A DNA stretch of 64,000 nt from Escherichia coli (GCF_041886205.1 NZ_CP169029.1), one strand, 5' to 3'; positions 3,482 through 62,625 are shown, counted from the first letter of the stretch. Program-made: numbers and translations. The notes: generated by a model from the sequence alone, not told the origin.

Positions 3482-3506
3482 ACCGGATGGCAACTCGCCA
3501 TCCGGT
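3482..3506. other. Perfect 10-bp stem hairpin (accggatggc/gccatccggt) just downstream of mrcB; possible terminator but lacks a clear T-run
   Basis: Inverted repeat read directly from sequence. Confidence 0.3.
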
Positions 3507-3522
3507 ATTTCACGCTTAGACG

Positions 3523-6057
3523 TTAATTACTACCAAACATATCTTTAATCCAACCGGCTACACCGTCGCTGTCTTTCTGCTCTTGCTGAGCAGGTTGCTG
3601 TTGCGGCTGTTGCTGCGGCTGAGAAGACTGATCAAACGGATTGCTTGACGGCTGCTGCTGCATCTCACTCTGCTGGCACAGCGATTGCGGATCGCTGGTC
3701 CAGACCGGCAAGACACGCATGCCACCGCTGCAAACAAAGTTGCCGTCGTAGTCCACGCCCATATCTGCAATATCTTCTGGCGGAACAAGATTCAGCGGTG
3801 TTGGCGTCTGGTTAGCCAGATAACGCTGATAAATCGACATTGCCCCGCTGGCTCCATACAGTTTGGTCGGCTGGTTGTTATCACGGCCTACCCAGGTGAT
3901 GGTCACCGTGCTGCCGTCAATGCCCGCAAACCAGGTATCTACGTTATTGTTAGTAGTCCCTGTTTTCCCTGCCAGATGCAGGTTCGGGTATTTCGCCCCA
4001 AGCTGACGACCCGTACCGCGTTGTACCACCTGCTGCATGGTCCATAGTGTCAGATACGCCGCCTGCGCCGGAACAGCGCGTTCCGCCTGCGGGAAGCTCT
4101 GATACAGCACTTTGCCATCTTCCGCGATTACCGAACGCAGCGCAGAAAGCGGTGCACGGTTACCGCCGCTGGCGATGGTCTGGAATGCCTGCGCCACTTC
4201 GATTGGCGTTAAGTTCAACGCCCCCAGCAGCATCGCCGGAACCGGATGCAGCTGATCTTTCGGCACGCCCAGTTTGATCCAGGTCTCCGTAACCGCAGGC
4301 AGCCCCAGTGCCATCCCCAGATTTACCGTCGGCACGTTCATCGAACGGGTCAACGCATCCACCAGCATCACTCTGCCACTTTCGCTATAACGACGATCAT
4401 CGTTCTGCGGTGACCAGACCTGGCCATTCGGCTGACGCAGCGCGATTGGCGCATCCGCAATCCACGTGTTCAGGCGATAGATTTTCGGCTGGCTTAAGGC
4501 AGTCAGATAAGTCGCTGGTTTTGCAAGGGAACCAATCGAACGACGCGCCTGCATCGCACGGTTGTAGCCCGCAAACTGCGGCTCAGAACCTCCGACCATC
4601 GCACGAACTTCACCACTAAAGCGGTCGACGACCACAATCGCGGTTTCCAGATCGCTCAGCTTACGCTGTTTCTTCAGTGCCGGAATGCCTTCCACGGCGG
4701 CTTTTTCTGCCGCGTCCTGGGCCACCGAGTCAAAGGTAGTGAAGATCTTCACGCCGGACAGATCTTTTACCTTATCGCCTAATTTCTCCTGCAACTCCTG
4801 ACGCACCAGTTGCATAAAGGCTGGCTGTGGAGAGATTACCCCACCGCGCGGCTGTACGCCCAGAGGACGCGCGCTGAGCATTTCATACAGTTCACCATCG
4901 ATAATCTGCTGTTGTTGTAGCAAACGCAGCACCAGATTACGTCGCTCCAGCGCCAGTTTCGGGTTACGCCACGGGTTGTAGATGGACGCCCCTTTCACCA
5001 TGCCAACTAACAGCGCCTGCTGGTCAAGGCTCAACTCTTCTACCGGGCGACCAAAGTAGTACAGGCTCGCCAGCGGGAAGCCACGAATTTCGTTGTCGCC
5101 GCTCTGACCGAGATACACCTCATTCATATACAGCTCAAGAATGCGATCTTTGCTGTAACGCGCATCCATGATCAACGCCATATAGGCTTCGTTCGCTTTA
5201 CGCCAGTAAGAGCGCTCGCTGGAGAGGAACAGGTTTTTCACCAGCTGTTGCGTCAGCGTACTCGCACCCTGCACCGTGCGACCTGCGGTCAGGTTTGCCA
5301 GCACCGCACGTCCGATGGAGTAGAGACTGATTCCATCATGCTCGTAGAAATGGCGGTCTTCTGTCGCCAGCAAAGTATCCACCAGCAAATCCGGGAAACC
5401 ACTGCGCGGCACAAACAAACGCTGCTCACCGTTTGGTGAGGAGATCATGGTGATCAGGCGCGGATCAAGACGGAAGAAACCGAACTGACGGTTGTTCTCC
5501 ATATTGACGATCGTCGCCAGATGATCGCCATCAAAGGTCAGACGCGCGCGCACCTGTCCTTCTTTACTGTCCGGGAAATCAAACGGACGGCGAATCATCT
5601 CAATGCTGTTGGCCTGCACGGTAAATTCGCCAGGACGGGTCATTTTTGACACCTGACGATACTGGGTTGCCTCCAGCAGCTTCACCATCTCGTTCTTGCT
5701 GATGGTCATGTCTGGCTCAAGGTTGACCATTCGGCCATAAACTGCCGCAGGCAGTTGCCAGACCTTGCCATCAATACGGCTGCGAATTTTTTGATCGAGA
5801 TAAACGCCGTAAATGGCGATCAGCACGGCAAAAACGATAGCCAGTTTTAACAGCAGCCATAGCCAGCCGCGTTTGCCACGAGGCTTACGCCCTTTGCCTT
5901 TGCCCTTACCTTTGCGCGGCATCGGTTCTTCATCCTCATAGTCATCATAATCGTCGTAATCATCGTCATCTTCGTAACGACGACGGCTTACCTTTTGTTT
6001 GACCGGACGCGTCGGTTTCCCTTTGCGTCCAATTGGCTCGCGGTCATTCCCGGCCAT
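3523..6057 (-). CDS. mrcB: Penicillin-binding protein 1B (bifunctional glycosyltransferase/transpeptidase)
   Basis: ORF 3523..6072; start refined to [10 protein letters not shown] (cat at 6055-6057); acidic [15 protein letters not shown] tract then TM segment; 844 aa. Confidence 0.95.
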
Positions 6058-6152
6058 GCTTTTTCTCCGCAATATTCAGGCGCAAAAGCCCGATTTTCTG
6101 TTCTTCTGTTACAAGACAGAAGAAGATATCTCTCAAAATTTGTGCTCGATCG

Positions 6153-6239
6153 GTCCCCTCTCCCTTAAGGGAGAGGGTTAGGGTGAGGGTGAACGTGCGC
6201 GCTGATGCCCTCACCCCGGCCCTCTCCCACAGGGAGAGG
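6153..6239. repeat. GC-rich intergenic repeat with three nested hairpins (ccctctccc/gggagaggg twice, flanking gggtgaggg/ccctcaccc); boxC-like
   Basis: Inverted repeats read directly from sequence between hrpB stop and mrcB start; family name from memory. Confidence 0.5.
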
Positions 6240-11660: not shown

Positions 11661-13058
11661 ATTTTTACCCGAGTCGCTAATTTTTGCCGCAAGGTGCTAA
11701 GCCGCGAGGAAAGCGAGGCTGAACAGGCAGTCGCCCGTCCACAGGTGACGGTGATCCCGCGTGAGCAGCATGCTATTTCCCGCAAAGATATCAGTGAAAA
11801 TGCCCTGAAGGTAATGTACAGGCTCAATAAAGCGGGATACGAAGCCTGGCTGGTTGGCGGCGGCGTGCGCGACCTGTTACTTGGCAAAAAGCCGAAAGAT
11901 TTTGACGTAACCACTAACGCCACGCCTGAGCAGGTGCGCAAACTGTTCCGTAACTGCCGCCTGGTGGGTCGCCGTTTCCGTCTGGCTCATGTGATGTTTG
12001 GCCCGGAGATTATCGAAGTTGCAACCTTCCGTGGACACCACGAAGGTAACGTCAGCGACCGCACGACCTCCCAACGCGGGCAAAACGGCATGTTGCTGCG
12101 CGACAACATTTTCGGCTCCATCGAAGAAGACGCCCAGCGCCGCGATTTCACTATCAACAGCCTGTATTACAGCGTAGCGGATTTTACCGTCCGTGATTAC
12201 GTTGGCGGCATGAAGGATCTGAAGGACGGCGTTATCCGTCTGATTGGTAACCCGGAAACGCGCTACCGTGAAGATCCGGTACGTATGCTGCGCGCGGTAC
12301 GTTTTGCCGCCAAATTGGGTATGCGCATCAGCCCGGAAACCGCAGAACCGATCCCTCGCCTCGCTACCCTGCTGAACGATATCCCACCGGCACGCCTGTT
12401 TGAAGAATCGCTTAAACTGCTACAAGCGGGCTACGGTTACGAAACCTATAAGCTGTTGTGTGAATATCATCTGTTCCAGCCGCTGTTCCCGACCATTACC
12501 CGCTACTTCACGGAAAATGGCGACAGCCCGATGGAGCGGATCATTGAACAGGTGCTGAAGAATACCGATACGCGTATCCATAACGATATGCGCGTGAACC
12601 CGGCGTTCCTGTTTGCCGCCATGTTCTGGTACCCACTGCTGGAGACGGCACAGAAGATCGCCCAGGAAAGCGGCCTGACCTATCACGACGCTTTCGCGCT
12701 GGCGATGAACGACGTGCTGGACGAAGCCTGCCGTTCACTGGCAATCCCGAAACGTCTAACGACGTTAACCCGCGATATCTGGCAGTTGCAGTTGCGTATG
12801 TCCCGTCGTCAGGGTAAACGCGCATGGAAACTACTGGAGCATCCTAAGTTCCGTGCGGCTTATGACCTGTTGGCCTTGCGAGCTGAAGTTGAACGTAACG
12901 CTGAACTACAGCGTCTGGTGAAATGGTGGGGTGAGTTCCAGGTTTCCGCGCCACCAGATCAAAAAGGGATGCTTAACGAGTTGGATGAAGAGCCGTCACC
13001 GCGTCGCCGTACTCGTCGTCCACGCAAACGCGCACCGCGTCGTGAGGGTACCGCATGA
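11661..13058 (+). CDS. pcnB: Poly(A) polymerase I
   Basis: ORF 11640..13058; recalled N-terminus [13 protein letters not shown] aligns to an ATT codon at 11661-11663 (non-canonical start); 465 aa; basic C-terminus. Confidence 0.93.
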
Positions 13059-13534
13059 CAGTGGCGTATATTGCCATAGGCAGCAATCAGGCCTCTCCGC
13101 TGGAGCAGGTCAATGCTGCCCTGAAAGCATTAGGCGATATCCCTGAAAGCCACATTCTTGCCGTTTCTTCGTTTTACCGCACCCCACCGCTGGGGCCGCA
13201 AGATCAACCCGATTACTTAAACGCAGCCGTGGCGCTTGAAACTTCGCTCGCCCCGGAAGAGTTACTCAATCACACACAGCGTATTGAATTGCAGCAAGGT
13301 CGCGTCCGTAAAGCTGAACGCTGGGGACCGCGCACGCTGGATCTTGACATCATGCTGTTTGGTAATGAAGTGATAAATACCGAACGTCTGACCGTTCCGC
13401 ACTACGATATGAAAAATCGTGGCTTTATGTTATGGCCGCTGTTTGAGATTGCACCGGAGCTGGTTTTTCCTGATGGGGAGACGTTGGCGACAAGGCTCAC
13501 CAATTTGAACGCCTTATGCCCACAACGCTGGTGA
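13055..13534 (+). CDS. folK: 2-amino-4-hydroxy-6-hydroxymethyldihydropteridine pyrophosphokinase (HPPK)
   Basis: 159-aa ORF; ATG overlaps pcnB stop (ATGA at 13055-13058). Confidence 0.95.
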
Positions 13535-13938
13535 ACTTGCTATAGCAAAGAGTAAATTCATTCAGCGTTTTTATTACGTTTTTTTAATATTAATTCTTTC
13601 TCAAATCTAAGCATAATATTTAATAAAACGCATTTCATAGCTTTCGTGTTTTTGTCTGTGCGCTAACTATTCTGACAATAGATTAGTTAAAAAAGTCTTC
13701 ACCACCTTATTGATACATTGAAAGAATAACAGATTTAACAACACAGGCTTTTTAACGTCCAATTAATAAAAATATCACTCAAACAAATAACTAAATATTG
13801 CATATACACACAGTGAATATTATTTATTTTATCGAACTTCACATTCACCAGATCTATTTTTATTCCATTTGTATAAGCTTTATAATTTGCTGAGGTGACT
13901 CTTCTCACCTCTCTATTATTTTTATAAGGACATTAAAT
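13535..13938 (+). promoter_or_regulatory. About 400-bp strongly AT-rich upstream region of the yad fimbrial operon (probable nucleoid-protein-silenced promoter region)
   Basis: Conspicuously AT-rich, ORF-free sequence ending at an AAGGA Shine-Dalgarno before yadN. Confidence 0.55.
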
Positions 13939-14511
13939 ATGTTAAAGAAAAGCGCTATTGCTGCGGCATTAGTTATGTTTACCAGTTCGGCCTTCGCGCT
14001 GGATGGCGGCCAACTGGATTTCGCAGGTTTGGTAAGTGACAACACGTGTATCCTGCACGTCAACGGTGGTGCACAGGATGGACAAATTAACCTGGAAACC
14101 GCAACAACGGCTGAAGTTACAGGTGCTGGCGTAGTCAATGCAGCCAATGTCGGCGCGAAAGCTGAACCGTTCTCTATTACAGTGGATTGCTCAGCAAACA
14201 CGCCTGCCGCCGCTGAAGCCAATCTGAATATGAGCTCAGTTTTCTTCAGTAACAGCCAGGGCACCCTGAATAACGATATGTCCGTAAGCCAGGCGGCAAG
14301 CGGCGTCGCTATTGCCGTTCACTATGTACCAAGCGCCGGCACTTTCGAGCAGGTCAAAATCAATGACAGCACCGATATTAAAAACCTCACGTTAACCAAC
14401 GGTAAAGGGACCTGGAACTTCCAGGCATCTTACGTTAAGCAGGCAGCGTCGATTCCTGTCGTTGCCGGGTTTGTGAAAACCAACGCGGCTTATACGATCA
14501 CTTACCCGTAA
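13939..14511 (+). CDS. yadN: Fimbrial major subunit (chaperone-usher family)
   Basis: 190-aa ORF with signal peptide and C-terminal beta-strand TITYP; first gene of fimbrial operon. Confidence 0.8.
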   Translation: MLKKSAIAAALVMFTSSAFALDGGQLDFAGLVSDNTCILHVNGGAQDGQINLETATTAEVTGAGVVNAANVGAKAEPFSITVDCSANTPAAAEANLNMSSVFFSNSQGTLNNDMSVSQAASGVAIAVHYVPSAGTFEQVKINDSTDIKNLTLTNGKGTWNFQASYVKQAASIPVVAGFVKTNAAYTITYP

Positions 14512-14573
14512 TTCAGATACAGACCAGGCAGTCGATGTCGGGCTGCCTGTATGACTTTAATAAGGACATCATT

Positions 14574-15317
14574 ATGACCAGGACGCGTCAGTTACTCCTT
14601 GCTTCACTTTTCACCTGCGCAGGTGCATTAGCCAGCTTTTCTGCCTGTGCCGATATTGTGCTTTCCGGCACGCGTATTATTTACAACGCAAACCAGAAAG
14701 AAGTCTCCCTGCGTATGGAAAACAAAGGCAGCCGCCCGCTGCTGGTACAAACCTGGATCGATACCGGGAGTGAAAACGCGGATCCCAGCACCATCACCGT
14801 GCCTTTTACCGTCACGCCACCGGTCTCTCGTGTGGACGGTAAACGTGGGCAGACGGTGAAAATCGCCTGGAATACCAGCCAAACGTTGCCCGCCGATCGC
14901 GAAAGTGTTTTCTGGTTCAATGCGCTGGAAGTCCCCCCCAAAATGAGCGAGACCGAGGCTCAGGGGAAAAATATCCTGCAACTGGCGTTCCGCACCCGCA
15001 TCAAGCTGTTTTATCGCCCGGCTAACCTGGTCGGCAGCGCCCCGGACGCCCCCAAACAACTGACCTGGCATCTGCAATCCTCTGGCGGGAAAGTTGTGCT
15101 TCAGGCCACTAACCCAACGCCATTTCACGTCTCTTTCAGCAGCATTAGCCTGATTTCGGGCGGAAAAAAATACGCCGTCGACGCCACGATGGTCTCCCCA
15201 AAAAGCAGCGCTGACATGACAGTGAAAGGTCTGAGCACTGCATCTGCTGGTGCAACGATTGAATATACCGCCATTAATGACTTCGGCGGTGCCATTGAAG
15301 GCAAAGTGAAGCTTTGA
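14574..15317 (+). CDS. yadV: Periplasmic fimbrial chaperone (PapD-like)
   Basis: ORF 14535..15317; start placed at ATG 14574 after AAGGA (MTRTRQLLLASLF... signal peptide); chaperone motifs LLVQTWID, FWFNALEVPP. Confidence 0.82.
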   Translation: MTRTRQLLLASLFTCAGALASFSACADIVLSGTRIIYNANQKEVSLRMENKGSRPLLVQTWIDTGSENADPSTITVPFTVTPPVSRVDGKRGQTVKIAWNTSQTLPADRESVFWFNALEVPPKMSETEAQGKNILQLAFRTRIKLFYRPANLVGSAPDAPKQLTWHLQSSGGKVVLQATNPTPFHVSFSSISLISGGKKYAVDATMVSPKSSADMTVKGLSTASAGATIEYTAINDFGGAIEGKVKL

Positions 15318-15347
15318 CGCACTGACTAACTACGCAGGGATTGCACA

Positions 15348-17969
15348 ATGACGACGCCTTTCAACGGCACAAAATTTCCCCTCTCTCCACTCGCTTGTCT
15401 GGTGGCGTTCAGTCTGCTGCCCTGCGCCTACAGCGCCATGGCGGCAGAGGAAGCTGTTGAATTTGATAACACCTTCCTGATGGGGGCCGGTGCCAAAAAT
15501 ATCGACGTCAATCGCTACAGTGATGGCAACCCCGCATTGCCAGGCCGTCACGACGTAAGCGTGTTTATCAACAATAAGCCGATCAGCAATCTGTCCATGG
15601 AGTTTATTGAAATAGCGAATAGCCGTAGCGCCAAACCCTGTATCTCTGCCAGCACCCTGCTCCAGCTGCATATTCGCCTGCCGGATAATCTCGACGATAC
15701 GGCGATTTTGCAAAAGCGCGACAGTACCGCGCAGGACTGTCTTAATCTTGAGGTCGCCATTCCCCAGTCCAGCCTCACCTATAACAGTAACGATCAGCGG
15801 ATGGACATTAATGTGCCTCAGCTGTGGTTACAAAAAACTTACGCTAACTATGTGGATCCTTCCCTGTGGGACGAAGGGATCAACGCAGCCATGTTTTCTT
15901 ACACGCTGAATGGCTGGCGCAGTGAATCGCCCGATCAAACCGCAGAGAGTACCTATGCCGGGCTGATGGGCGGCTTTAATTTATGGGGATGGCATTTCCG
16001 TTCGCACGGCAACTATTCATGGGACAAAGAGAGTGGCGGCAGTTTCGAGTTCCAGGACAAGTACCTGCAACGTGATATCACCAGGCTGCGGTCACAACTG
16101 GTTGTCGGTGAAACCAACACTACGGGGGAAACCTTTGATTCCGTTCGTATTCGCGGTGTTCGTCTCTACAGCGAAAGCCGCATGCTGCCACCGACGCTCG
16201 CCTCTTACGCGCCGGTGATCCGTGGGGTCGCGAACTCCAACGCCAAAGTAACAATTACCCAGAACGGCTACAAGATTTACGAAACGACGGTGCCGCCAGG
16301 CCCCTTTGCTATCGATGATTTGTCGCCAGCCGGATTTGGTGCCGATCTCGAAGTCACGGTCACCGAGTCTGACGGCTCACAGCGAACATTCACTCAGGCC
16401 TATTCGTCGGTGATCCAGATGATGCGCCCCGGCGTGGGCAAATGGGACATCAGCGCGGGTGAAATCAAAAAAGATGAGCTGAAGGACAAGCCCAATCTGA
16501 TACAGGGAACGTACTACTACGGGTTAAGTAATACGTTTACCGGCTATACCGGCCTGCAAATGACCGATAACGGCTACTGGGCCGGATTGTTAGGCCTTGG
16601 GATGAACACCTCATTGGGGGCATTTTCTCTTGATGTGACGCAGTCGCACACCGAAATCCCCAACGACAAAACCTATGAGGGCCAGAGCTACCGTATTTCG
16701 TGGAACAAATATTTTGCACCGACCGAAACGTCACTCAACATTGCGGCCTATCGCTACTCGACAAAAAACTATCTCGGTTTGAACGACGCCCTGACGCTGA
16801 TCAACGCTGCTAACCATCCTTATGATGAAGGTTACAAGGGAATCGTCTCCTATGGGCGTATGAAAAACCAGTTCAGCGTCAGCCTCAACCAGACGTTAAA
16901 AAATAGCGAGCGGGATTATGGTTCCTTCTACTTGAACGGGACATGGACGGACTACTGGGCCACTAATGAATCACAGAGTAGTTTTGCGTTTGGTTACAGC
17001 AGCGGCTTTGACTGGGCCAGCTACAGCGTCAGCCTGCAACGTACCTATGACGAAGACAATAACAAAGATGACTCTATCTATCTCAGCCTGACCATTCCGC
17101 TGGACAAACTGTTCGGCAGCGATAGCCGCGAAGGTGGCTTTAGGACACTGAATACCAGCGTCAACAGCGATATGAAGGGCAGTTCGCAATACAACGCTAA
17201 TGCCACCGGCTACAGCCAGGACAACCGCTGGAACTACAGCGTCAACACCTCCTATAACGCATTGAAAGAGACGGAAAGCCTGAAAACCATCAGTGGTTTC
17301 ACCAGCTATGAGTCACCCTGGGACACCCTTTCCGGTTCCGTCTCCGCCAGTAGCGACCACAGTCGTCAGTATGGCGTGAGTACCGATGGCGGCTTTGTGT
17401 TACATCGCCACGGGCTTACGTTCAGTAACGACAGCTTTACCGATTCAGACACGCTGGCGCTGGTCAACGCCCCCGGCGCGAAAGGTGCGCAAATTAACTT
17501 TGGCAGCAGTACCGTGGACCGATTTGGCTACGGGGTAACCAGTGCGCTTTCTCCGTATCATGAAAACACCGTCGCCCTCAACGTGGACAACCTGGATGAA
17601 GATGTGGAACTGAAAAGCACCAGCACCGTCGCGATCCCGCGCCAGGGTGCGATTATCTTCAGCCATTTCGACACCGACACCGGGCGTTCAGCCATTCTTA
17701 ACCTGCTGCGCAGTGATAAGCAGCCCGTACCGTTTGCTTCCGATGTGACAGACAGCAGCGGGCAGTCCATCGGCACAGTTGGGCAAGGGAGCCAGGCTTT
17801 CGTTCGCGGCATTGCCGACGAAGGGGAGCTGGTGGTTTCCTGGTATGAAAAAAATAGCCAGAAACAGTGCCGCATTCACTACCAGATACCGCCCTCTCCC
17901 ACCATGACGGGCAAAACTATCGTATTAAACGCCGTGCCCTGCACCCTGCAATCACAGGAGAGGAAATGA
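15348..17969 (+). CDS. htrE: Fimbrial outer-membrane usher
   Basis: 873-aa ORF with signal peptide; position between chaperone and minor subunits. Confidence 0.88.
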   Translation: MTTPFNGTKFPLSPLACLVAFSLLPCAYSAMAAEEAVEFDNTFLMGAGAKNIDVNRYSDGNPALPGRHDVSVFINNKPISNLSMEFIEIANSRSAKPCISASTLLQLHIRLPDNLDDTAILQKRDSTAQDCLNLEVAIPQSSLTYNSNDQRMDINVPQLWLQKTYANYVDPSLWDEGINAAMFSYTLNGWRSESPDQTAESTYAGLMGGFNLWGWHFRSHGNYSWDKESGGSFEFQDKYLQRDITRLRSQLVVGETNTTGETFDSVRIRGVRLYSESRMLPPTLASYAPVIRGVANSNAKVTITQNGYKIYETTVPPGPFAIDDLSPAGFGADLEVTVTESDGSQRTFTQAYSSVIQMMRPGVGKWDISAGEIKKDELKDKPNLIQGTYYYGLSNTFTGYTGLQMTDNGYWAGLLGLGMNTSLGAFSLDVTQSHTEIPNDKTYEGQSYRISWNKYFAPTETSLNIAAYRYSTKNYLGLNDALTLINAANHPYDEGYKGIVSYGRMKNQFSVSLNQTLKNSERDYGSFYLNGTWTDYWATNESQSSFAFGYSSGFDWASYSVSLQRTYDEDNNKDDSIYLSLTIPLDKLFGSDSREGGFRTLNTSVNSDMKGSSQYNANATGYSQDNRWNYSVNTSYNALKETESLKTISGFTSYESPWDTLSGSVSASSDHSRQYGVSTDGGFVLHRHGLTFSNDSFTDSDTLALVNAPGAKGAQINFGSSTVDRFGYGVTSALSPYHENTVALNVDNLDEDVELKSTSTVAIPRQGAIIFSHFDTDTGRSAILNLLRSDKQPVPFASDVTDSSGQSIGTVGQGSQAFVRGIADEGELVVSWYEKNSQKQCRIHYQIPPSPTMTGKTIVLNAVPCTLQSQERK

Positions 17970-18538
17970 GATTCTTTTTACGGTTAACACTGTTATTAAC
18001 GACGCTGTTCAATGCATCGTGGGCATTGGCTGTCGAAATTTCGGTTAATTTTACCGCGACAATCAAAGAGACCACCTGCGCCATGACGGTGAGCGCGCTC
18101 AATGGCGCGAATATTAGCGGTGACTCGGCGTCAGAAAACTACTTTCTGGATATACCCGCAATGGGGGTTTCTGATATCACCAATAAAACGTCCAAAACCG
18201 AAGCCAGCTTTAAGTTGTTGCCGATTAACTGTAATAACTACATCTCCAGCATGTCGATGACCATTGGCGGTAAACACAGCGATTATACCGACACGCTGCT
18301 GGTGAATGAATCCTCGGTAACAGGCGGCGCAAATTATATTGGCGTGGGCTTTAAACGACTCAATGACGATGACAGCCTGCGGTTTAAGGTGGATGGAACA
18401 ACGTCAATTAACTGGACACGAAATGATATTGCCAATGGATTTGATATTACAGGGATAGTTCGCCAGACAACCTCATCTCATACCATGGAACCAGGTACAG
18501 TTCAGACAAAAGCGATATTCGTTTTTACTTATAACTAA
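17966..18538 (+). CDS. yadM: Fimbrial minor subunit
   Basis: ORF 17867..18538; start refined to ATG 17966 overlapping htrE stop (ATGA); signal peptide MRFFLRLTLLLTTLFNASWA. Confidence 0.75.
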   Translation: MRFFLRLTLLLTTLFNASWALAVEISVNFTATIKETTCAMTVSALNGANISGDSASENYFLDIPAMGVSDITNKTSKTEASFKLLPINCNNYISSMSMTIGGKHSDYTDTLLVNESSVTGGANYIGVGFKRLNDDDSLRFKVDGTTSINWTRNDIANGFDITGIVRQTTSSHTMEPGTVQTKAIFVFTYN

Positions 18539-18550
18539 CAGGGATGGTGT

Positions 18551-19147
18551 ATGAATTATCAACGCATAATTGTGGCGCTACTGTTGATCATCGGAATAAA
18601 TACGCAAAGTCTGGCCGGTTCCAGTACGTTGAACGTGACGGTGAGGACAACCGTTACCGCCAGTACCTGCACAGCAGAACTTCACAATGCGCAAGACCTG
18701 CAAGCAACAACGATTGATATTGGTGATGTCTATCTGAACGAACTTGCAAATAAGACTAAATATCAGAATTTCAGCCTGGTATTTTCAAATTGTGAAGGAT
18801 TAGCCAAAGATCAGGCGACCGTCACACTTTCGCCGCAAACAGGCTGCGATGGTGCTTCCAGTACGGGTGGCGGATTTCGCAACGCACTGGCCTCCAGCAA
18901 CAATGATGCCGCAACCGGCGTATCGATTGAAGTATGGACGACCAATCAGCCGGAAGGTCAGGGAAGTGTGCAGCTAAACTGCAAAACAAAACCGACCAGT
19001 ATTGTTGATCTGACGGGCGCGTCAGGTGTGAACGTTGTCCACTGGTGGTTAAGCTCCAGAATTGTCGTCGCCGCGGATAACACTATCGCCGATGTACGCG
19101 CGGGACAGTTCTCCACTAATGCTGTCTTTTCAGTAACCTATGAGTAA
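18551..19147 (+). CDS. yadL: Fimbrial minor subunit
   Basis: 198-aa ORF with signal peptide and pilin-like C-terminus. Confidence 0.78.
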   Translation: MNYQRIIVALLLIIGINTQSLAGSSTLNVTVRTTVTASTCTAELHNAQDLQATTIDIGDVYLNELANKTKYQNFSLVFSNCEGLAKDQATVTLSPQTGCDGASSTGGGFRNALASSNNDAATGVSIEVWTTNQPEGQGSVQLNCKTKPTSIVDLTGASGVNVVHWWLSSRIVVAADNTIADVRAGQFSTNAVFSVTYE

Positions 19148-19153
19148 ACGACG

Positions 19154-19726
19154 ATGAAATCACGCTTTCGACTGTTCGTTTCCAGCTTAGGGTTTATTTC
19201 AGCGGTCTGTATTGCCAACACCAATATTAATATGACCGCCAACGTTGTCAGCACCAGTTGCAAAGTCACGCTCGACAATAGCGGCAGCATTGATTTGGGC
19301 ACCGTAGATTACAACTATCTGAACACAAATACTGCTGTCGATCGCGTTTATACCGGTGGCCAGGCGTTCTACATTACTGTCAGCGACTGCGCGCAGGTTG
19401 CAGGGAAAAATCCTTCCCGTCTTACGGTGAGTTTTACGCCCGTCGGGGGCACCCTCGGCGCAACCAATCAACAGGTTTTCGCCAATCAGGCTGCCGATGG
19501 CGCTAAAAATGTCGGCATCGTAATTTTATCCACCCAGGATGCGCAAAGTATTTTCAATGTGCTGGACACCCACGGCCAACCGCAAAGTATTTATCCCGTG
19601 AGCGCGGATCAGTTAGTCAATGCTACTTACCATTTTTATGCACGGATGCAGAAGATCGACCTGACGCAAGCCGCGACCGGTGGTGTCGTGCGGGCCAGTG
19701 TGTTTGTCGGTGTTTATTATGAATAA
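19154..19726 (+). CDS. yadK: Fimbrial minor subunit
   Basis: 190-aa ORF with signal peptide and pilin-like C-terminus (VFVGVYYE). Confidence 0.78.
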   Translation: MKSRFRLFVSSLGFISAVCIANTNINMTANVVSTSCKVTLDNSGSIDLGTVDYNYLNTNTAVDRVYTGGQAFYITVSDCAQVAGKNPSRLTVSFTPVGGTLGATNQQVFANQAADGAKNVGIVILSTQDAQSIFNVLDTHGQPQSIYPVSADQLVNATYHFYARMQKIDLTQAATGGVVRASVFVGVYYE

Positions 19727-19752
19727 TCTTATTCGTTCTCAAGGATGATGAA

Positions 19753-20973
19753 ATGAACCGTTTTCTGTTACCTAAATGGGCCAAAATTTTACTGCTTTTA
19801 TTGCCCTTATATTCTGGTTACTTGCAAGCCGCAAATACATTGATCGTTGGCAGTAAAACAACCTCTGACGGTAGTGGTATCAATAAAAACAGAGGCCCGG
19901 CCGGCGACGGTTATTCCACAACCACCTTCACCACCGGTAACAGTCAGATTGTTATCGGCCGCGCCACTACGCTGCAATACAGTAATATCAAAATCCAGCT
20001 ACAGGCCGATACCGCAGGCAATGGTAACACGGGGGTCATTTACTGTGCACCAGGGGGGATGGGCGGACCCATTTCACTGGAAAGTCATTTTGTCGCAAGC
20101 CCCTACGTCTATAATAATCACAAGCTTTTCAAAACCAACATGCCAGGGCTGTATTTTACCATGCGCATGTATAATTTATGGTCCTATGCTCTGACGTCAT
20201 CAGAAGACTTTTATATCGGCGATACCAATCCATACTCTTTGAATCTACACTCAACGATATGCGCGAAATCTCTCGGTTGGTACCAGACCCTTGGTGGGTT
20301 AGTTGCTAGTATCGACATTGATTTTTATAACGACGCCACATTTGACCCCAACGCCAGCGGCAGTGTTGCTCTACTGAGTGATACCACCTATCACTACTCG
20401 TTGAAAAACCAGTCTCCCGGGGGGAATCTCGTTACCAAAACTATTTATCAGACCTTCAATATGGGGAATGTCACATTAACCTCTCCAACCTGTTCGTCGG
20501 CGATACTCTCCGGCAGCAGCGTCAGTAAGGGCGACACGGTAGGATTGGGCGAATACAGTTCGAAAGAGGTTATCGACGGCCTGAACGGCGTGCCTTTTTC
20601 AATTGTGCTGAAAGGGTGTTATCGGGTAACCAATATTGATGTCAAACTGACTACTGGGGCGCCTGCGGTATCGACGTCGCTATTGGGCAACTCGCTGACA
20701 ACCAATGCTGCCAGCGGCGTAGGCGTAGAAATTAAAGGCGAGTCCAACTCGCATTATCCTGAAGTGGTGCTCAAGCCAAACGACGCTTCCTCAATCTATA
20801 AAGCATATGGCGATAACCCGGAAACCTCAAACGGTATTATTGGCAGCAATGCTTCGGGTTCGCCTGCCGACCAGACGCTGAATTTTACCGCGACGCTCAA
20901 GCAGGATGGTAATCAGCAAATCCGGGGCGGAGATTTCAAAGCGACGGGAGTCTTCTCCATCACCTACCCCTGA
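19753..20973 (+). CDS. yadC: Fimbrial tip adhesin-like subunit
   Basis: 406-aa ORF with signal peptide, two-domain size typical of tip adhesins, pilin C-terminus GVFSITYP. Confidence 0.8.
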   Translation: MNRFLLPKWAKILLLLLPLYSGYLQAANTLIVGSKTTSDGSGINKNRGPAGDGYSTTTFTTGNSQIVIGRATTLQYSNIKIQLQADTAGNGNTGVIYCAPGGMGGPISLESHFVASPYVYNNHKLFKTNMPGLYFTMRMYNLWSYALTSSEDFYIGDTNPYSLNLHSTICAKSLGWYQTLGGLVASIDIDFYNDATFDPNASGSVALLSDTTYHYSLKNQSPGGNLVTKTIYQTFNMGNVTLTSPTCSSAILSGSSVSKGDTVGLGEYSSKEVIDGLNGVPFSIVLKGCYRVTNIDVKLTTGAPAVSTSLLGNSLTTNAASGVGVEIKGESNSHYPEVVLKPNDASSIYKAYGDNPETSNGIIGSNASGSPADQTLNFTATLKQDGNQQIRGGDFKATGVFSITYP

Positions 20974-20980
20974 GTAAAAT

Positions 20981-21006
20981 CCCGGCAGTTAACCCTGCCG
21001 GTTTTG
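20981..21006 (+). terminator. Rho-independent terminator of the yad fimbrial operon (ccggcag/ctgccgg then TTTTG)
   Basis: Hairpin plus T-run right after yadC stop. Confidence 0.7.
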
Positions 21007-21090
21007 ACCACAAAGGGCTAACACTCATCACTCACATCCCCTACAATGCCCTCATACTATTGATGATATTTATGGCTAACAGGGGTTATG

Positions 21091-21885
21091 ATGAAACCGA
21101 CCACCATCTCCTTATTGCAGAAGTACAAACAAGAAAAAAAACGTTTTGCGACCATCACCGCTTATGACTACAGCTTCGCGAAACTCTTTGCTGATGAAGG
21201 ACTTAACGTCATGCTGGTAGGCGACTCGCTGGGCATGACGGTTCAGGGTCACGACTCCACCCTGCCGGTGACCGTTGCCGATATCGCCTACCACACTGCC
21301 TCCGTACGTCGTGGTGCGCCAAACTGCCTGCTGTTGGCTGACCTGCCGTTTATGGCGTATGCCACGCCGGAACAAGCCTTTGAAAACGCCGCAACGGTTA
21401 TGCGTGCCGGGGCCAATATGGTCAAAATTGAGGGCGGTGAGTGGCTGGTCGAAACCGTAAAAATGCTGACCGAACGTGCCGTTCCTGTATGTGGTCACTT
21501 AGGTTTAACCCCACAGTCAGTGAATATTTTCGGTGGCTACAAAGTTCAGGGGCGCGGCGATGAAGCGGGCGATCAACTGCTCAGCGATGCATTAGCCTTA
21601 GAAGCCGCTGGGGCACAGCTGCTGGTGCTGGAATGCGTGCCGGTTGAACTGGCAAAACGTATTACCGAAGCACTGGCGATCCCGGTTATTGGCATTGGCG
21701 CAGGCAACGTCACTGACGGGCAGATCCTCGTGATGCACGACGCCTTCGGCATTACCGGCGGTCACATTCCTAAATTCGCTAAAAATTTCCTCGCCGAAAC
21801 GGGCGACATCCGCGCGGCTGTGCGGCAGTATATGGCTGAAGTGGAGTCCGGCGTTTATCCGGGCGAAGAACACAGTTTCCATTAA
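21091..21885 (+). CDS. panB: 3-methyl-2-oxobutanoate hydroxymethyltransferase
   Basis: ORF 21088..21885 (MMKPTT...); second ATG at 21091 gives the 264-aa form. Confidence 0.95.
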
Positions 21886-22748: not shown

Positions 22749-22779
22749 TGCTTTTACTCTAAATAATTCAAGTTGCAGG

Positions 22780-47887: not shown

Positions 47888-48047
47888 GGGTTATTCCTTA
47901 TCTATCTAATAACGTTGAGTTTTCTGGAACCTGTCCCATTGAACTCTCGCCGGAAAGCTCAATAAGACAGGTTCTACGTTTAGTTGCCGCGCTTTTATAT
48001 GCGCTTGATTTACAACATCTTCTGGATAATTTTTACCAGAAAAATCA

Positions 48048-59261: not shown

Positions 59262-59470
<209 letters not shown>

Positions 59471-59476
<6 letters not shown>

Positions 59477-59860: not shown

Positions 59861-59879
59861 TGTCTTAAACCTATAAAAA

Positions 59880-59899
59880 AGGCGCAGAATCCTGCGCCT
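59880..59899 (-). terminator. Hairpin (aggcgcag/ctgcgcct) with T-run on minus strand between secA and mutT; putative partial terminator/attenuator
   Basis: 8-bp stem, 4-nt loop; AAAAAA on plus strand at 59875-59880. Confidence 0.55.
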
Positions 59900-59919
59900 T
59901 TTACTTCAACTGTTAGCTT

Positions 59920-62625
59920 TTATTGCAGGCGACCATGGCACTGCTTGTATTTTTTACCAGAACCGCACGGGCAAGGATCGTTACGTCCTACTTTGCGTTC
60001 ACCGGTTTGCGCCGCCAGTGCAGCTGCGGCTGCAGAGTCGTCATCCTGATGGCTAAGCTGCTGCATTTGCGCTAAACGCTCGGCTTCTATACGACGCTGT
60101 TGTTCCAGCTCCTCAACCTCTTCAGGCATACGTACCTGAACTTTGCTCAGCGTACTGATAACTTCATATTTCAACGACTCCAGCATCGCTGCAAACATGG
60201 AGAACGATTCACGTTTGTATTCCTGCTTCGGATCTTTCTGTGCGTAGCCACGCAGGTGGATACCCTGACGCAGATAGTCCATCGCTGCCAGGTGCTCTTT
60301 CCACAGGGAGTCAAGCGTTTGCAGCATGACGCCTTTCTCGAAGTGACGCATCATCTCAGCACCAACCACTTCTTCTTTACGCTGATACACTTCGATGGAC
60401 TGCGCCAGAATGCGCTCACGCAGCGTCTCTTCATGCAGTTCTGGTTCTTTATCCAGCCACTCAGCAATTGGTAAATCGAGGTCGAAATCGTTCTTCAGAC
60501 GTTCCTGCAGCCCCGGAATATCCCACATTTCTTCCAGCGACTGTGGCGGAATGTAGGCATCAATGGTCGCTTTGAACACATCTTCACGAATGCTGTTAAT
60601 GGTTTCGCTCACATCACTGACATCCAGCAGTTCGTTACGCTGGGAGTAAATGGCGCGACGCTGATCGTTAGCCACGTCATCATATTCCAGCAGTTGCTTA
60701 CGAATGTCGAAGTTACGGCTTTCAACTTTACGCTGGGCGTTGGCAATCGCTTTGGTCACCCACGGGTGTTCAATGGCTTCGCCTGGCTTCATACCCAGTT
60801 TACGCATCATGCCGGATACTCGGTCGGAAGCAAAAATACGCATCAGCGCATCTTCCATCGACAGGTAGAAACGGGAAGAACCAGCATCCCCCTGACGACC
60901 AGAACGACCGCGCAACTGGTTATCGATACGACGGGATTCGTGACGCTCGGTACCGATGATATGCAGGCCACCTGCTGCCAGTACCGCATCGTGACGTACC
61001 TGCCAGTCGGCTTTAATTTTTTCAATTTGCTCTGCGGTCGGATTTTCCAGCGCGGCAACTTCTGCCTGCCAGCTACCACCGAGCACAATATCTGTACCAC
61101 GACCCGCCATGTTGGTCGCGATAGTCACCGCAGCCGGATAACCTGCCTGAGCAACAATCGCCGCTTCGTTGGCGTGGAATTTGGCGTTCAGGACGTTGTG
61201 CTTAATACCGGCTTTGGTCAGTTCGTTTGATACCAGCTCCGATTTTTCGATGGAGATAGTACCCACCAGCACCGGTTGGCCTTTCGCAGTACGTTCTTTG
61301 ATATCTTCAATGATCGCCTGAATTTTTTCCGCTTCAGTCATGTAGACCAGGTCCGGCAGATCTTTACGAATCATTGGACGGTTGGTCGGAACAACGACGG
61401 TATCCAGCTTGTAGATGGAGCTGAATTCGAAAGCTTCGGTATCAGCAGTACCGGTCATCCCCGCCAGTTTTTCATACAGACGGAAGTAGTTCTGGAAGGT
61501 GATCGAAGCCAGCGTTTGGTTTTCGTTCTGGATCTGCACACCTTCTTTCGCTTCCACAGCCTGGTGAAGACCATCGGACCAGCGACGGCCCTGCATGGTA
61601 CGACCGGTGTGTTCGTCAACGATGATAACTTCACCATCTTTAACGATGTAGTCGACGTCACGGGTAAACAGCGCATGAGCGCGCAGCGCCGCCGTTACGT
61701 GGTGCATCAGCATGATGTTGGCCGGAGAGTACAGAGACTCCCCTTCATCCATGATGCCTTCTTTCACCAGCAGTTCTTCAATCAGCACCAGACCACGTTC
61801 GGTCAGGTTCACCTGGCGAGATTTTTCGTCCACCGAGAAGTGGCCTTCGCCCTGGAAGGTTTCGGAGTCTTCTTTTTCCTGACGGATCAGGTGCGGAATA
61901 ATTTTATTCACGCGTTTATACATTTCCGAGCTGTCTTCTGCCGGGCCAGAAATGATCAGCGGTGTACGCGCTTCATCGATCAGGATGGAGTCCACTTCGT
62001 CCACCAGCGCATAGTGCAGTTTACGCTGTACACGTTCTTCAGGACTGAACGCCATGTTGTCGCGCAGGTAGTCAAAGCCGTATTCGTTGTTCGTACCGTA
62101 AGTGATGTCAGCTGCGTAAGCTTCACGCTTCGCTGGTGCTGGCATACCCGGCAGGTTGATACCGACAGTCAGGCCAAGGAATTCAAACAGCGGACGGTTG
62201 TTTTCGGCGTCACGTTGCGCCAGGTAGTCGTTCACGGTAACTACGTGCACGCCTTTACCGGTTAGTGCGTTCAGGTAAGCAGGCAGCGTTGCGGTCAGGG
62301 TTTTACCTTCACCGGTACGCATTTCGGCGATGCAGCGTTCGTTAAGAACCATACCGCCGAGTAACTGAACGTCGAAGTGACGCATACCAAAGACGCGCTT
62401 ACTTGCCTCACGCACCACGGCGAAAGCTTCCGGGATCAGATTTTCCAGCACTTCGCCTTTTTCCAGACGTGCACGAAACTCTGCGGTTTTACCTTTCAGT
62501 TCTTCGTCGGAGAGTTTTTCCATCTCCGGTTCCATGGCATTGATGATGTTGACCACTTTGCGCATCCGGCGCAGGGTGCGATCGTTACGACTACCGAAAA
62601 CTTTAGTTAATAATTTGATTAGCAT
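59920..62625 (-). CDS. secA: Preprotein translocase ATPase SecA
   Basis: 901-aa [26 protein letters not shown]...; C-terminal zinc-binding [14 protein letters not shown]. Confidence 0.97.

Follow-up and report, generated by a model that had tools for sequence, protein, structure and literature searches.

Is the chaperone-usher fimbrial operon between folK and panB in a 64,000-nucleotide stretch of Escherichia coli DNA (GCF_041886205.1 NZ_CP169029.1; the whole stretch is called the window below) an AT-rich island inserted at that site, as a preliminary description held, or one of several alternative occupants of a much older fimbrial locus? The analyses favored the second answer. With a probability of roughly 0.8, positions 13487-21090 form a replaceable cassette at an ancient folK-panB locus of the Enterobacteriaceae, which holds a deep-branching Yad/Sta operon and is exchanged by homologous recombination. 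The operon itself is a rare, deep-branching member of the family known as Yad in E. coli and Sta in Salmonella, and represents an uncommon variant, not a new kind of system.

Seven co-oriented open reading frames (ORFs) on the + strand fill positions 13939-20973, with folK (13055-13534) on the left and panB (21088-21885) on the right. The operon occupies the yad position of K-12 and runs in the order pilin, chaperone, usher, three minor pilins and adhesin. In strain wlxctx60, whose operon was 100.0% identical to that of the window by blastn, the annotation of the Prokaryotic Genome Annotation Pipeline (PGAP) gave the same seven intact coding sequences, and two start codons, those of the chaperone (14574) and of the first minor pilin (17966), were refined according to it. 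The best K-12 match of each product was its positional counterpart, and ORFs, annotation and K-12 matches together upheld the seven-gene chaperone-usher operon in yad position and order that had been described before. The operon had also been regarded as a mild allelic variant of K-12 yad. The subunits are indeed non-identical to those of K-12, but the variant is not mild: identities were 51% to YadN, 55% to YadV, 58% to HtrE, 32% to YadM, 38% to YadL, 41% to YadK and 40% to YadC, a range of 32-58% that is far more divergent than suggested. The flanking proteins, by comparison, were 100% (PcnB), 99% (PanB), 99% (PanC) and 98% (FolK, first 144 residues only) identical to those of K-12.

Phylogenetic analysis of the ushers by neighbour-joining separated the window clade from the E. 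coli HtrE clade, and every named E. coli HtrE cluster was at most 59% identical to the window usher. The nearest ushers outside E. coli (81-83% identity) were those of E. albertii, Escherichia sp. 94.0001, [Enterobacter] lignolyticus (Pluralibacter), Pseudocitrobacter vendiensis and P. faecalis, followed by a tier at 54-62% that comprises Salmonella, Citrobacter, Kluyvera, Superficieibacter and E. coli HtrE. All homologues at 54-83% usher identity whose genomic context was checked were located at folK-panB, and an operon of the same order was found there in E. albertii, Escherichia sp. 94.0001, both Pseudocitrobacter species, two deep Salmonella types, C. werkmanii, O157:H7 and ATCC 8739. The site thus holds a homologous operon in every relative examined, and the earlier wording, that the operon was inserted between folK and panB, had to be abandoned. 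This position marks the Yad/Sta fimbrial type, and the locus shared by Yad and Sta has been judged ancestral to Escherichia and Salmonella (Wurpel et al., 2013; PMC3559732). Two tandem major-pilin genes stand at the operon head in P. vendiensis (4832-5404 and 5602-6168 of locus L005) and in C. werkmanii (3503-4093 and 4556-5143 of locus L016).

Several deep types are present within E. coli. The O157:H7 usher was 60% identical to HtrE, and the usher of ATCC 8739 shared 81% identity with the O157 type and 54% with the window type. The operon of ATCC 8739 (14890-21849 of locus L018) is of an O157:H7-related type and not of the K-12 type, in a phylogroup A laboratory strain whose core sequence is close to that of the window; the types are therefore scattered across phylogroups.

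The borders of the variable DNA were sharp. Homology to K-12 and to ATCC 8739 ended at 13486, within folK and 48 bp short of its stop codon (13493 by megablast), and resumed at 21091, at the start of panB; K-12 and ATCC 8739 carry different types and yet showed identical breakpoints against the window. The left edge of the cassette consists of the last 48 bp of folK (13487-13534, + strand), which encode a type-specific C-terminal tail: across 11 loci the last ~17 FolK residues (~143-159) were hypervariable and co-varied with the fimbrial type, whereas residues 1-139 were almost invariant, and the variable cassette therefore begins inside folK. The right edge is the type-specific spacer between the adhesin gene and panB (20974-21090, + strand), which includes the region upstream of panB and promoter-like sites at 21018-21047 and 21063-21092. 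Next to the cassette, over 0.5 kb on its left side and ~3 kb on its right, identity was 93-97%, against ~99% further away; lows of the K-12 identity profile at 41-42 kb and 44-45 kb were artefacts, caused by secondary internal-repeat matches that overwrote the main alignment, and reflect no real divergence. A search of the borders for tRNA genes, integrase or transposase ORFs, att-like sequences and long or significant flanking direct repeats found none, and the cassette thus lacks the marks of a mobile genomic island. Further to the right, between the panC stop codon and rpnC, the window has 195 bp (22754-22948) that K-12 and ATCC 8739 lack; this insertion contains AATCCCCAGGAGCTTACATAAGTAAGTGACTGGGGTTAGCG, which, judged by the ERIC1R and ERIC2 primer sequences, is presumably the core of an enterobacterial repetitive intergenic consensus/intergenic repeat unit (ERIC/IRU) element.

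Among 5,426 complete E. coli genomes, megablast with 13535-21006 detected the window type in only eight, seven at 99% identity or more and GF4-3 at 93.4%. A version of ~76% identity was present in 13 further E. coli genomes, and in a distant search mode the usher gene matched 5,210 genomes at 60-80% only. Six carriers (wlxctx60, 6EVA, XJ5.2, LHM10-1, VE-T9 and CP52E) also ranked nearest over a core segment lying 9-19 kb away (99.8-100%), and only these six had the right-flank allele at 99% or more; because of this shared core and flank they appear to form one lineage. The other two carriers, ET201 and GF4-3, have other backgrounds, and the type thus stands in at least three. In VE-T9, which is clonally related to the window strain, an IS1 is inserted in the operon, and in strain T2 only an IS1A element and an adhesin remnant lie between folK and panB. 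A second rare E. coli type, represented by E400634, is carried by 13 genomes; the single one that was inspected came from a human isolate from Kenya.

Evidence for exchange came from this sister type and from comparison of the window allele with its GF4-3 counterpart. At the DNA level, the operon of E. coli E400634 was 89% identical to its counterpart in P. vendiensis and 97% identical to the one in Escherichia sp. 94.0001; for comparison, two core proteins, GluQRS and PcnB, were 77-90% identical between the window and Pseudocitrobacter. The whole operon of the E400634 type was apparently exchanged between genera, because its identity is far closer than the core genes allow. Between the window and GF4-3 alleles, the ratio of non-synonymous to synonymous divergence (dN/dS) was 0.05-0.18 for all seven genes, which are therefore maintained by purifying selection. 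Synonymous divergence (dS) reached 1.22 in the adhesin lectin domain and was 0.04-0.30 elsewhere, which indicates that the lectin domain is a mosaic, separately exchanged module.

Base composition, to which the preliminary description had also pointed, gave a divided result. The region between folK and the first pilin gene (13535-13938, + strand) is, as had been stated, an extremely AT-rich and ORF-free leader of about 400 bp: its 404 bp have a GC content of 27.0%, and the ORF scan gave spurious ORFs only, of at most 57 amino acids (aa). Among all 404-bp stretches of the 64 kb, only a stretch shifted by 12 bp was lower in GC (0.262), and 0.04% were as low. The body of the operon did not follow this pattern. 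Its coding GC of 50.8% lay near the 52.0% of the whole window and above the 42.4% of K-12 yad, and when the seven operon genes were compared with the 37 other long ORFs of the window, no significant difference was found in GC at third codon positions (GC3; 0.559 vs. 0.567, p = 0.47), codon adaptation index (CAI; 0.289 vs. 0.372, p = 0.08) or rare codons (0.037 vs. 0.029, p = 0.37). The CAI weights were those of Sharp and Li (1987), and a self-referenced CAI from window genes gave the same answer. Only total GC was slightly lower (0.499 vs. 0.528, p = 0.018), driven by the four distal genes, and the claim of an AT-rich, lower-GC body was therefore withdrawn.

GC and codon usage clearly below the host core, as expected of a xenogeneic island, were thus not observed, and the AT-rich part is the 404-bp leader only. 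Since GC3 and codon adaptation of the operon resemble those of its neighbours, the compositional case for foreign, H-NS-silenced DNA is limited to this leader, and the label of an AT-rich island fits the K-12 allele (42% GC; GC3 of its yad genes 0.34-0.41) but not the window. Of the two properties on which the preliminary description had staked itself, a GC content and codon usage distinct from the flanking genes failed, while non-identity to the K-12 alleles was strongly confirmed. An AT-rich leader (280-570 bp, 21-33% GC) was kept in every type examined at the locus, with a body GC of 42-53%. Reasoning from composition can therefore mislead here: the common K-12 allele is AT-rich, the rare allele is host-like, and the leader alone is AT-rich in all types examined.

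Sequence family analyses placed each product within the Yad/Sta family. The operon has the usher domains, the PapD-like chaperone, the pilin motifs and the two-domain tip adhesin of a chaperone-usher system. The HtrE/StaC-like outer-membrane usher (15348-17969, + strand, 873 aa) scored 1348 against the HtrE equivalog model NF007337 (cutoff 830), with the next family at 554, which places it with HtrE/StaC, apart from other usher families. The domains PapC_N, Usher and PapC_C (PF13954, PF00577, PF13953) are recorded for the representative (P0001) of its 100%-identity cluster. HtrE and StaC are reportedly placed in clade gamma4 of the Nuccio and Baumler scheme. The YadV/EcpD-like periplasmic chaperone (14574-15317, + strand, 247 aa) scored 358.9 against NF007398 (cutoff 285) and also matched 19 further fimbrial chaperone models; PapD_N and PapD_C are present on its orthologues. 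The third minor pilin, YadK-like (19154-19726, + strand, 190 aa), scored 193.7 against NF011794 (PRK15262; cutoff 132). Usher, chaperone and this pilin passed the NCBIfam equivalog cutoffs, whereas the other subunits remained below them. The YadN/StaA-like major pilin (13939-14511, + strand, 190 aa) matched StaA best (145.6 vs. 230), the YadM/StaD-like minor pilin 1 (17966-18538, + strand, 190 aa), whose ATG overlaps the usher stop codon (ATGA), matched StaD (87.9 vs. 228), the YadL/StaE-like minor pilin 2 (18551-19147, + strand, 198 aa) matched YadL and StaE models (146.8 vs. 206 for YadL), and the YadC-like adhesin (19753-20973, + strand, 406 aa) scored 280.6 vs. 382. By these equivalog models, taken strictly, the major pilin, minor pilins 1 and 2 and the adhesin would thus not be called Yad. 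By inspection, the major pilin has a signal peptide and a C-terminal TYP, the five subunits end in TYP, TYN, TYE, YYE or TYP and have hydrophobic N-termini, and PF00419 was present on the adhesin and on the orthologues.

The adhesin deserves separate treatment. It comprises a lectin domain (~aa 25-243) and a pilin domain (~aa 244-406), which were 36% and 51% identical to those of YadC (40% overall), and across the family the lectin domains diverge faster than the pilin domains. An AlphaFold2 model built with 27 homologues had a predicted local distance difference test (pLDDT) score of 86.4 and two beta-rich domains, and its top Foldseek matches in the PDB were the two-domain tip adhesins FimH, FocH, LpfD and CupB6. 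Sequence identity to these four was ~12-13%, full-length template modelling (TM) scores were low (0.23-0.42), and the lectin domain of the window adhesin is larger (~220 aa) than theirs. A search of the PDB with the adhesin sequence gave marginal FimF-like matches to the pilin domain only and no solved YadC-like lectin domain. Because the lectin domain is only 36% identical to that of YadC, a different adhesin specificity is plausible, and the binding of xylose and annexin A2 reported for YadC cannot be assumed for the window adhesin and should not be carried over to it.

Comparison of the leaders revealed a module in their last 110 bp that is common to five divergent relatives and consists of ATTCACC, a -10 region, an inverted repeat and AAGGA; the remainder of the leader could not be aligned. 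The ATTCACC box (13843-13849, + strand) was kept in four of the five distinct window-clade leaders and reads ATTCATG in P. vendiensis. The -10 region, TTTATAAT in four lineages and TTTATGAT in P. vendiensis, includes a perfect -10-like hexamer, TATAAT, at 13881-13886 (+ strand; TATGAT in P. vendiensis), at which we infer a candidate promoter. About 6 nt past it follows the inverted repeat or 5' stem-loop GAGGTGA-N6-TCACCTC (13892-13911, + strand), of which GGTGA-N6-TCACC was kept in all five lineages, with one compensatory change (GATGA..TCATC) in P. vendiensis. This repeat (13894-13909) matches the CRP core TGTGA-N6-TCACA at four of five positions in each half, and it could be an operator instead of, or besides, an RNA stem-loop. 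More distant types, in Salmonella, have different palindromes at the same leader position. The Shine-Dalgarno sequence AAGGA (13926-13930, + strand) completes the module.

At the other end of the operon, the terminator that had been proposed was recovered by folding: an intrinsic-terminator-like hairpin, CCGGCAG-TTAACC-CTGCCGG followed by TTTT (20982-21005, + strand; -13.2 kcal/mol, z = -3.6), lies 9 nt past the adhesin stop codon, with a 7-bp G+C stem at 20982-21001. Between the pilin and chaperone genes, a 9-bp G+C stem-loop (14525-14549, + strand), whose enclosing 81-nt segment had a z of only -1.1, might possibly act in mRNA processing or attenuation. Folding of the folK-proximal leader gave no significant folK terminator, and an Rfam search over all of the window, at gathering thresholds, had no match within 13000-21500. 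The same search detected, elsewhere in the window, the small RNA tp2, two copies of naRNA4 (CssrE) and STnc40 (47890-48003, 59278-59471 and 59875-59944).

These features suggest how the system would work. Transcription would most likely start in the AT-rich leader, from the -10 at 13881-13886 with the conserved stem-loop directly after it, and would stop at the hairpin 20982-21005. The yad promoter is under H-NS repression in K-12 and CFT073 (PMC13245861), and by analogy the leader probably serves as a nucleation site of H-NS silencing. By homology, the operon products would build a surface fimbria via donor-strand exchange, with receptor choice set by the lectin domain. Whole alleles, and the lectin module separately, would swap by homologous recombination through the conserved flanks, and a mobile element would have played no part in the arrival of the cassette.

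Other explanations were weighed against this exchange. A rather unlikely one is that the allele was never transferred and is an old polymorphism kept vertically (a trans-species balanced polymorphism), with most E. coli having switched types. It would agree with the host-like GC3 and codon usage, with flanks whose divergence (93-98% identity) is of E. coli level and not of genus level, and with the failure to find a close foreign donor; it is less easily reconciled with carriers in at least three backgrounds with differing flank alleles, with the mosaic lectin domain, with a sister type clearly exchanged between genera, and with ATCC 8739, nearest to the window by core sequence among the strains examined, which carries a third type. 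We consider it improbable that the operon is an AT-rich, horizontally acquired, H-NS-silenced island and a modest allelic variant of K-12 yad. Such an island would have yad position and gene order, a leader of 27% GC and the H-NS repression known from K-12 and CFT073 (PMC13245861), but not a coding GC of 50.8% with GC3 and CAI like those of the neighbours, nor proteins only 32-58% identical to K-12 with the usher in a different deep clade, and the locus is ancestral, without any insertion (PMC3559732).

That a mobile element, be it an integrase, an IS or a phage, delivered the operon as a genomic island into the folK-panB spacer is hardly credible. The borders are sharp and one edge is AT-rich, but the search for tRNA, integrase, transposase and meaningful flanking repeats had found nothing, the site was never empty in the relatives examined save for the IS1-associated deletion in strain T2, and the left border lies within the essential gene folK, the reading frame of which is kept. 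It is also very improbable that the operon is a decaying, non-functional relic: seven intact ORFs with lengths matching their homologues, dN/dS of 0.05-0.18, signal peptides and C-terminal pilin motifs stand against the IS1 in the operon of VE-T9 and the cryptic behaviour of Yad-family operons in laboratory culture (PMC3559732, PMC13245861).

Several results weigh against the reading of a cassette exchanged by recombination and controlled from its leader. Outside E. coli, the usher identity of potential donors did not exceed 83%; a search by exact peptide words among GTDB species representatives returned two Pseudocitrobacter loci only (81-82% usher identity), and distant or unsampled donors would escape it. 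The window allele may accordingly be either a recent import or a long-standing resident of E. coli at low frequency. The carrier count covers complete RefSeq genomes only. As regards the leader, the -35 of the proposed promoter is poor, and the sigma-70 consensus scan, whose total promoter counts were at chance level, listed nothing on the + strand there; covariation of the 5' stem-loop amounts to a single compensatory change among five sequences. The high-affinity H-NS motif TCGATAAATT (at most two mismatches) was not enriched in the window (68 sites vs. 56.7 ± 7.7 expected), with one single-mismatch site in the leader at 13826-13835, and silencing could be weaker than for K-12 yad because the body of the operon is not AT-rich.

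The preferred reading of a replaceable cassette can be extended, tentatively, to a broader one: folK-panB may be a trans-species adhesin cassette locus, in which frequency-dependent or niche selection would maintain several deep fimbrial lineages (at most 60% usher identity) and homologous recombination at fixed breakpoints, one of them within the essential gene folK, would move them between Escherichia, Pseudocitrobacter, Salmonella and Citrobacter, with the lectin domain exchangeable on its own. If so, the locus would be comparable in its logic to O-antigen or flagellin loci, and the window allele would give a receptor specificity absent from the common E. coli types, possibly tied to the origin of its carriers from wildlife, livestock and amphibians.

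A more immediate consequence concerns surveys. Ellison et al. count a strain as Yad-positive when its usher reaches 80% identity to HtrE across 80% or more of the length, and report phylogroup E as Yad-negative (PMC13245861). The window usher, 58% identical to K-12 HtrE (the query of that study was EC958 HtrE), falls short of this threshold. Such surveys call strains of the window, O157:H7 and ATCC 8739 types Yad-negative despite a homologous fimbrial operon at the site, and as that homologue is intact and selectively maintained, the fimbrial repertoires and adhesin diversity of E. coli are under-counted.

When compared to known systems, the window operon resembles the Yad operon of K-12, CFT073 and EC958 (yadN-ecpD(yadV)-htrE-yadMLKC) in its site, its seven genes and their order, an AT-rich leader of similar size and gene-by-gene reciprocal best matches, and differs from that of K-12 in protein sequence (32-58% identity), in coding GC (42.4% in K-12 vs. 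50.8%) and in an usher that belongs to a different deep clade. Salmonella Sta (staABCDEFG) and the other Salmonella and Citrobacter operons at folK-panB share locus and architecture, with ushers 54-61% identical to that of the window; the major pilin and minor pilin 1 match StaA and StaD best, yet below the Sta equivalog cutoffs, and Salmonella itself holds two deep types at this site. The closest true relatives are the operons of E. albertii, Escherichia sp. 94.0001, E. coli strains of the E400634 type and Pseudocitrobacter, which have ushers 81-83% identical to that of the window, the same leader module of -10 and stem-loop, a body GC of 49-53%, 70-76% DNA identity and adhesins 61-77% identical to that of the window, and which are annotated just generically as "fimbrial protein"; [Enterobacter] lignolyticus likewise has an usher and an adhesin similar to those of the window.

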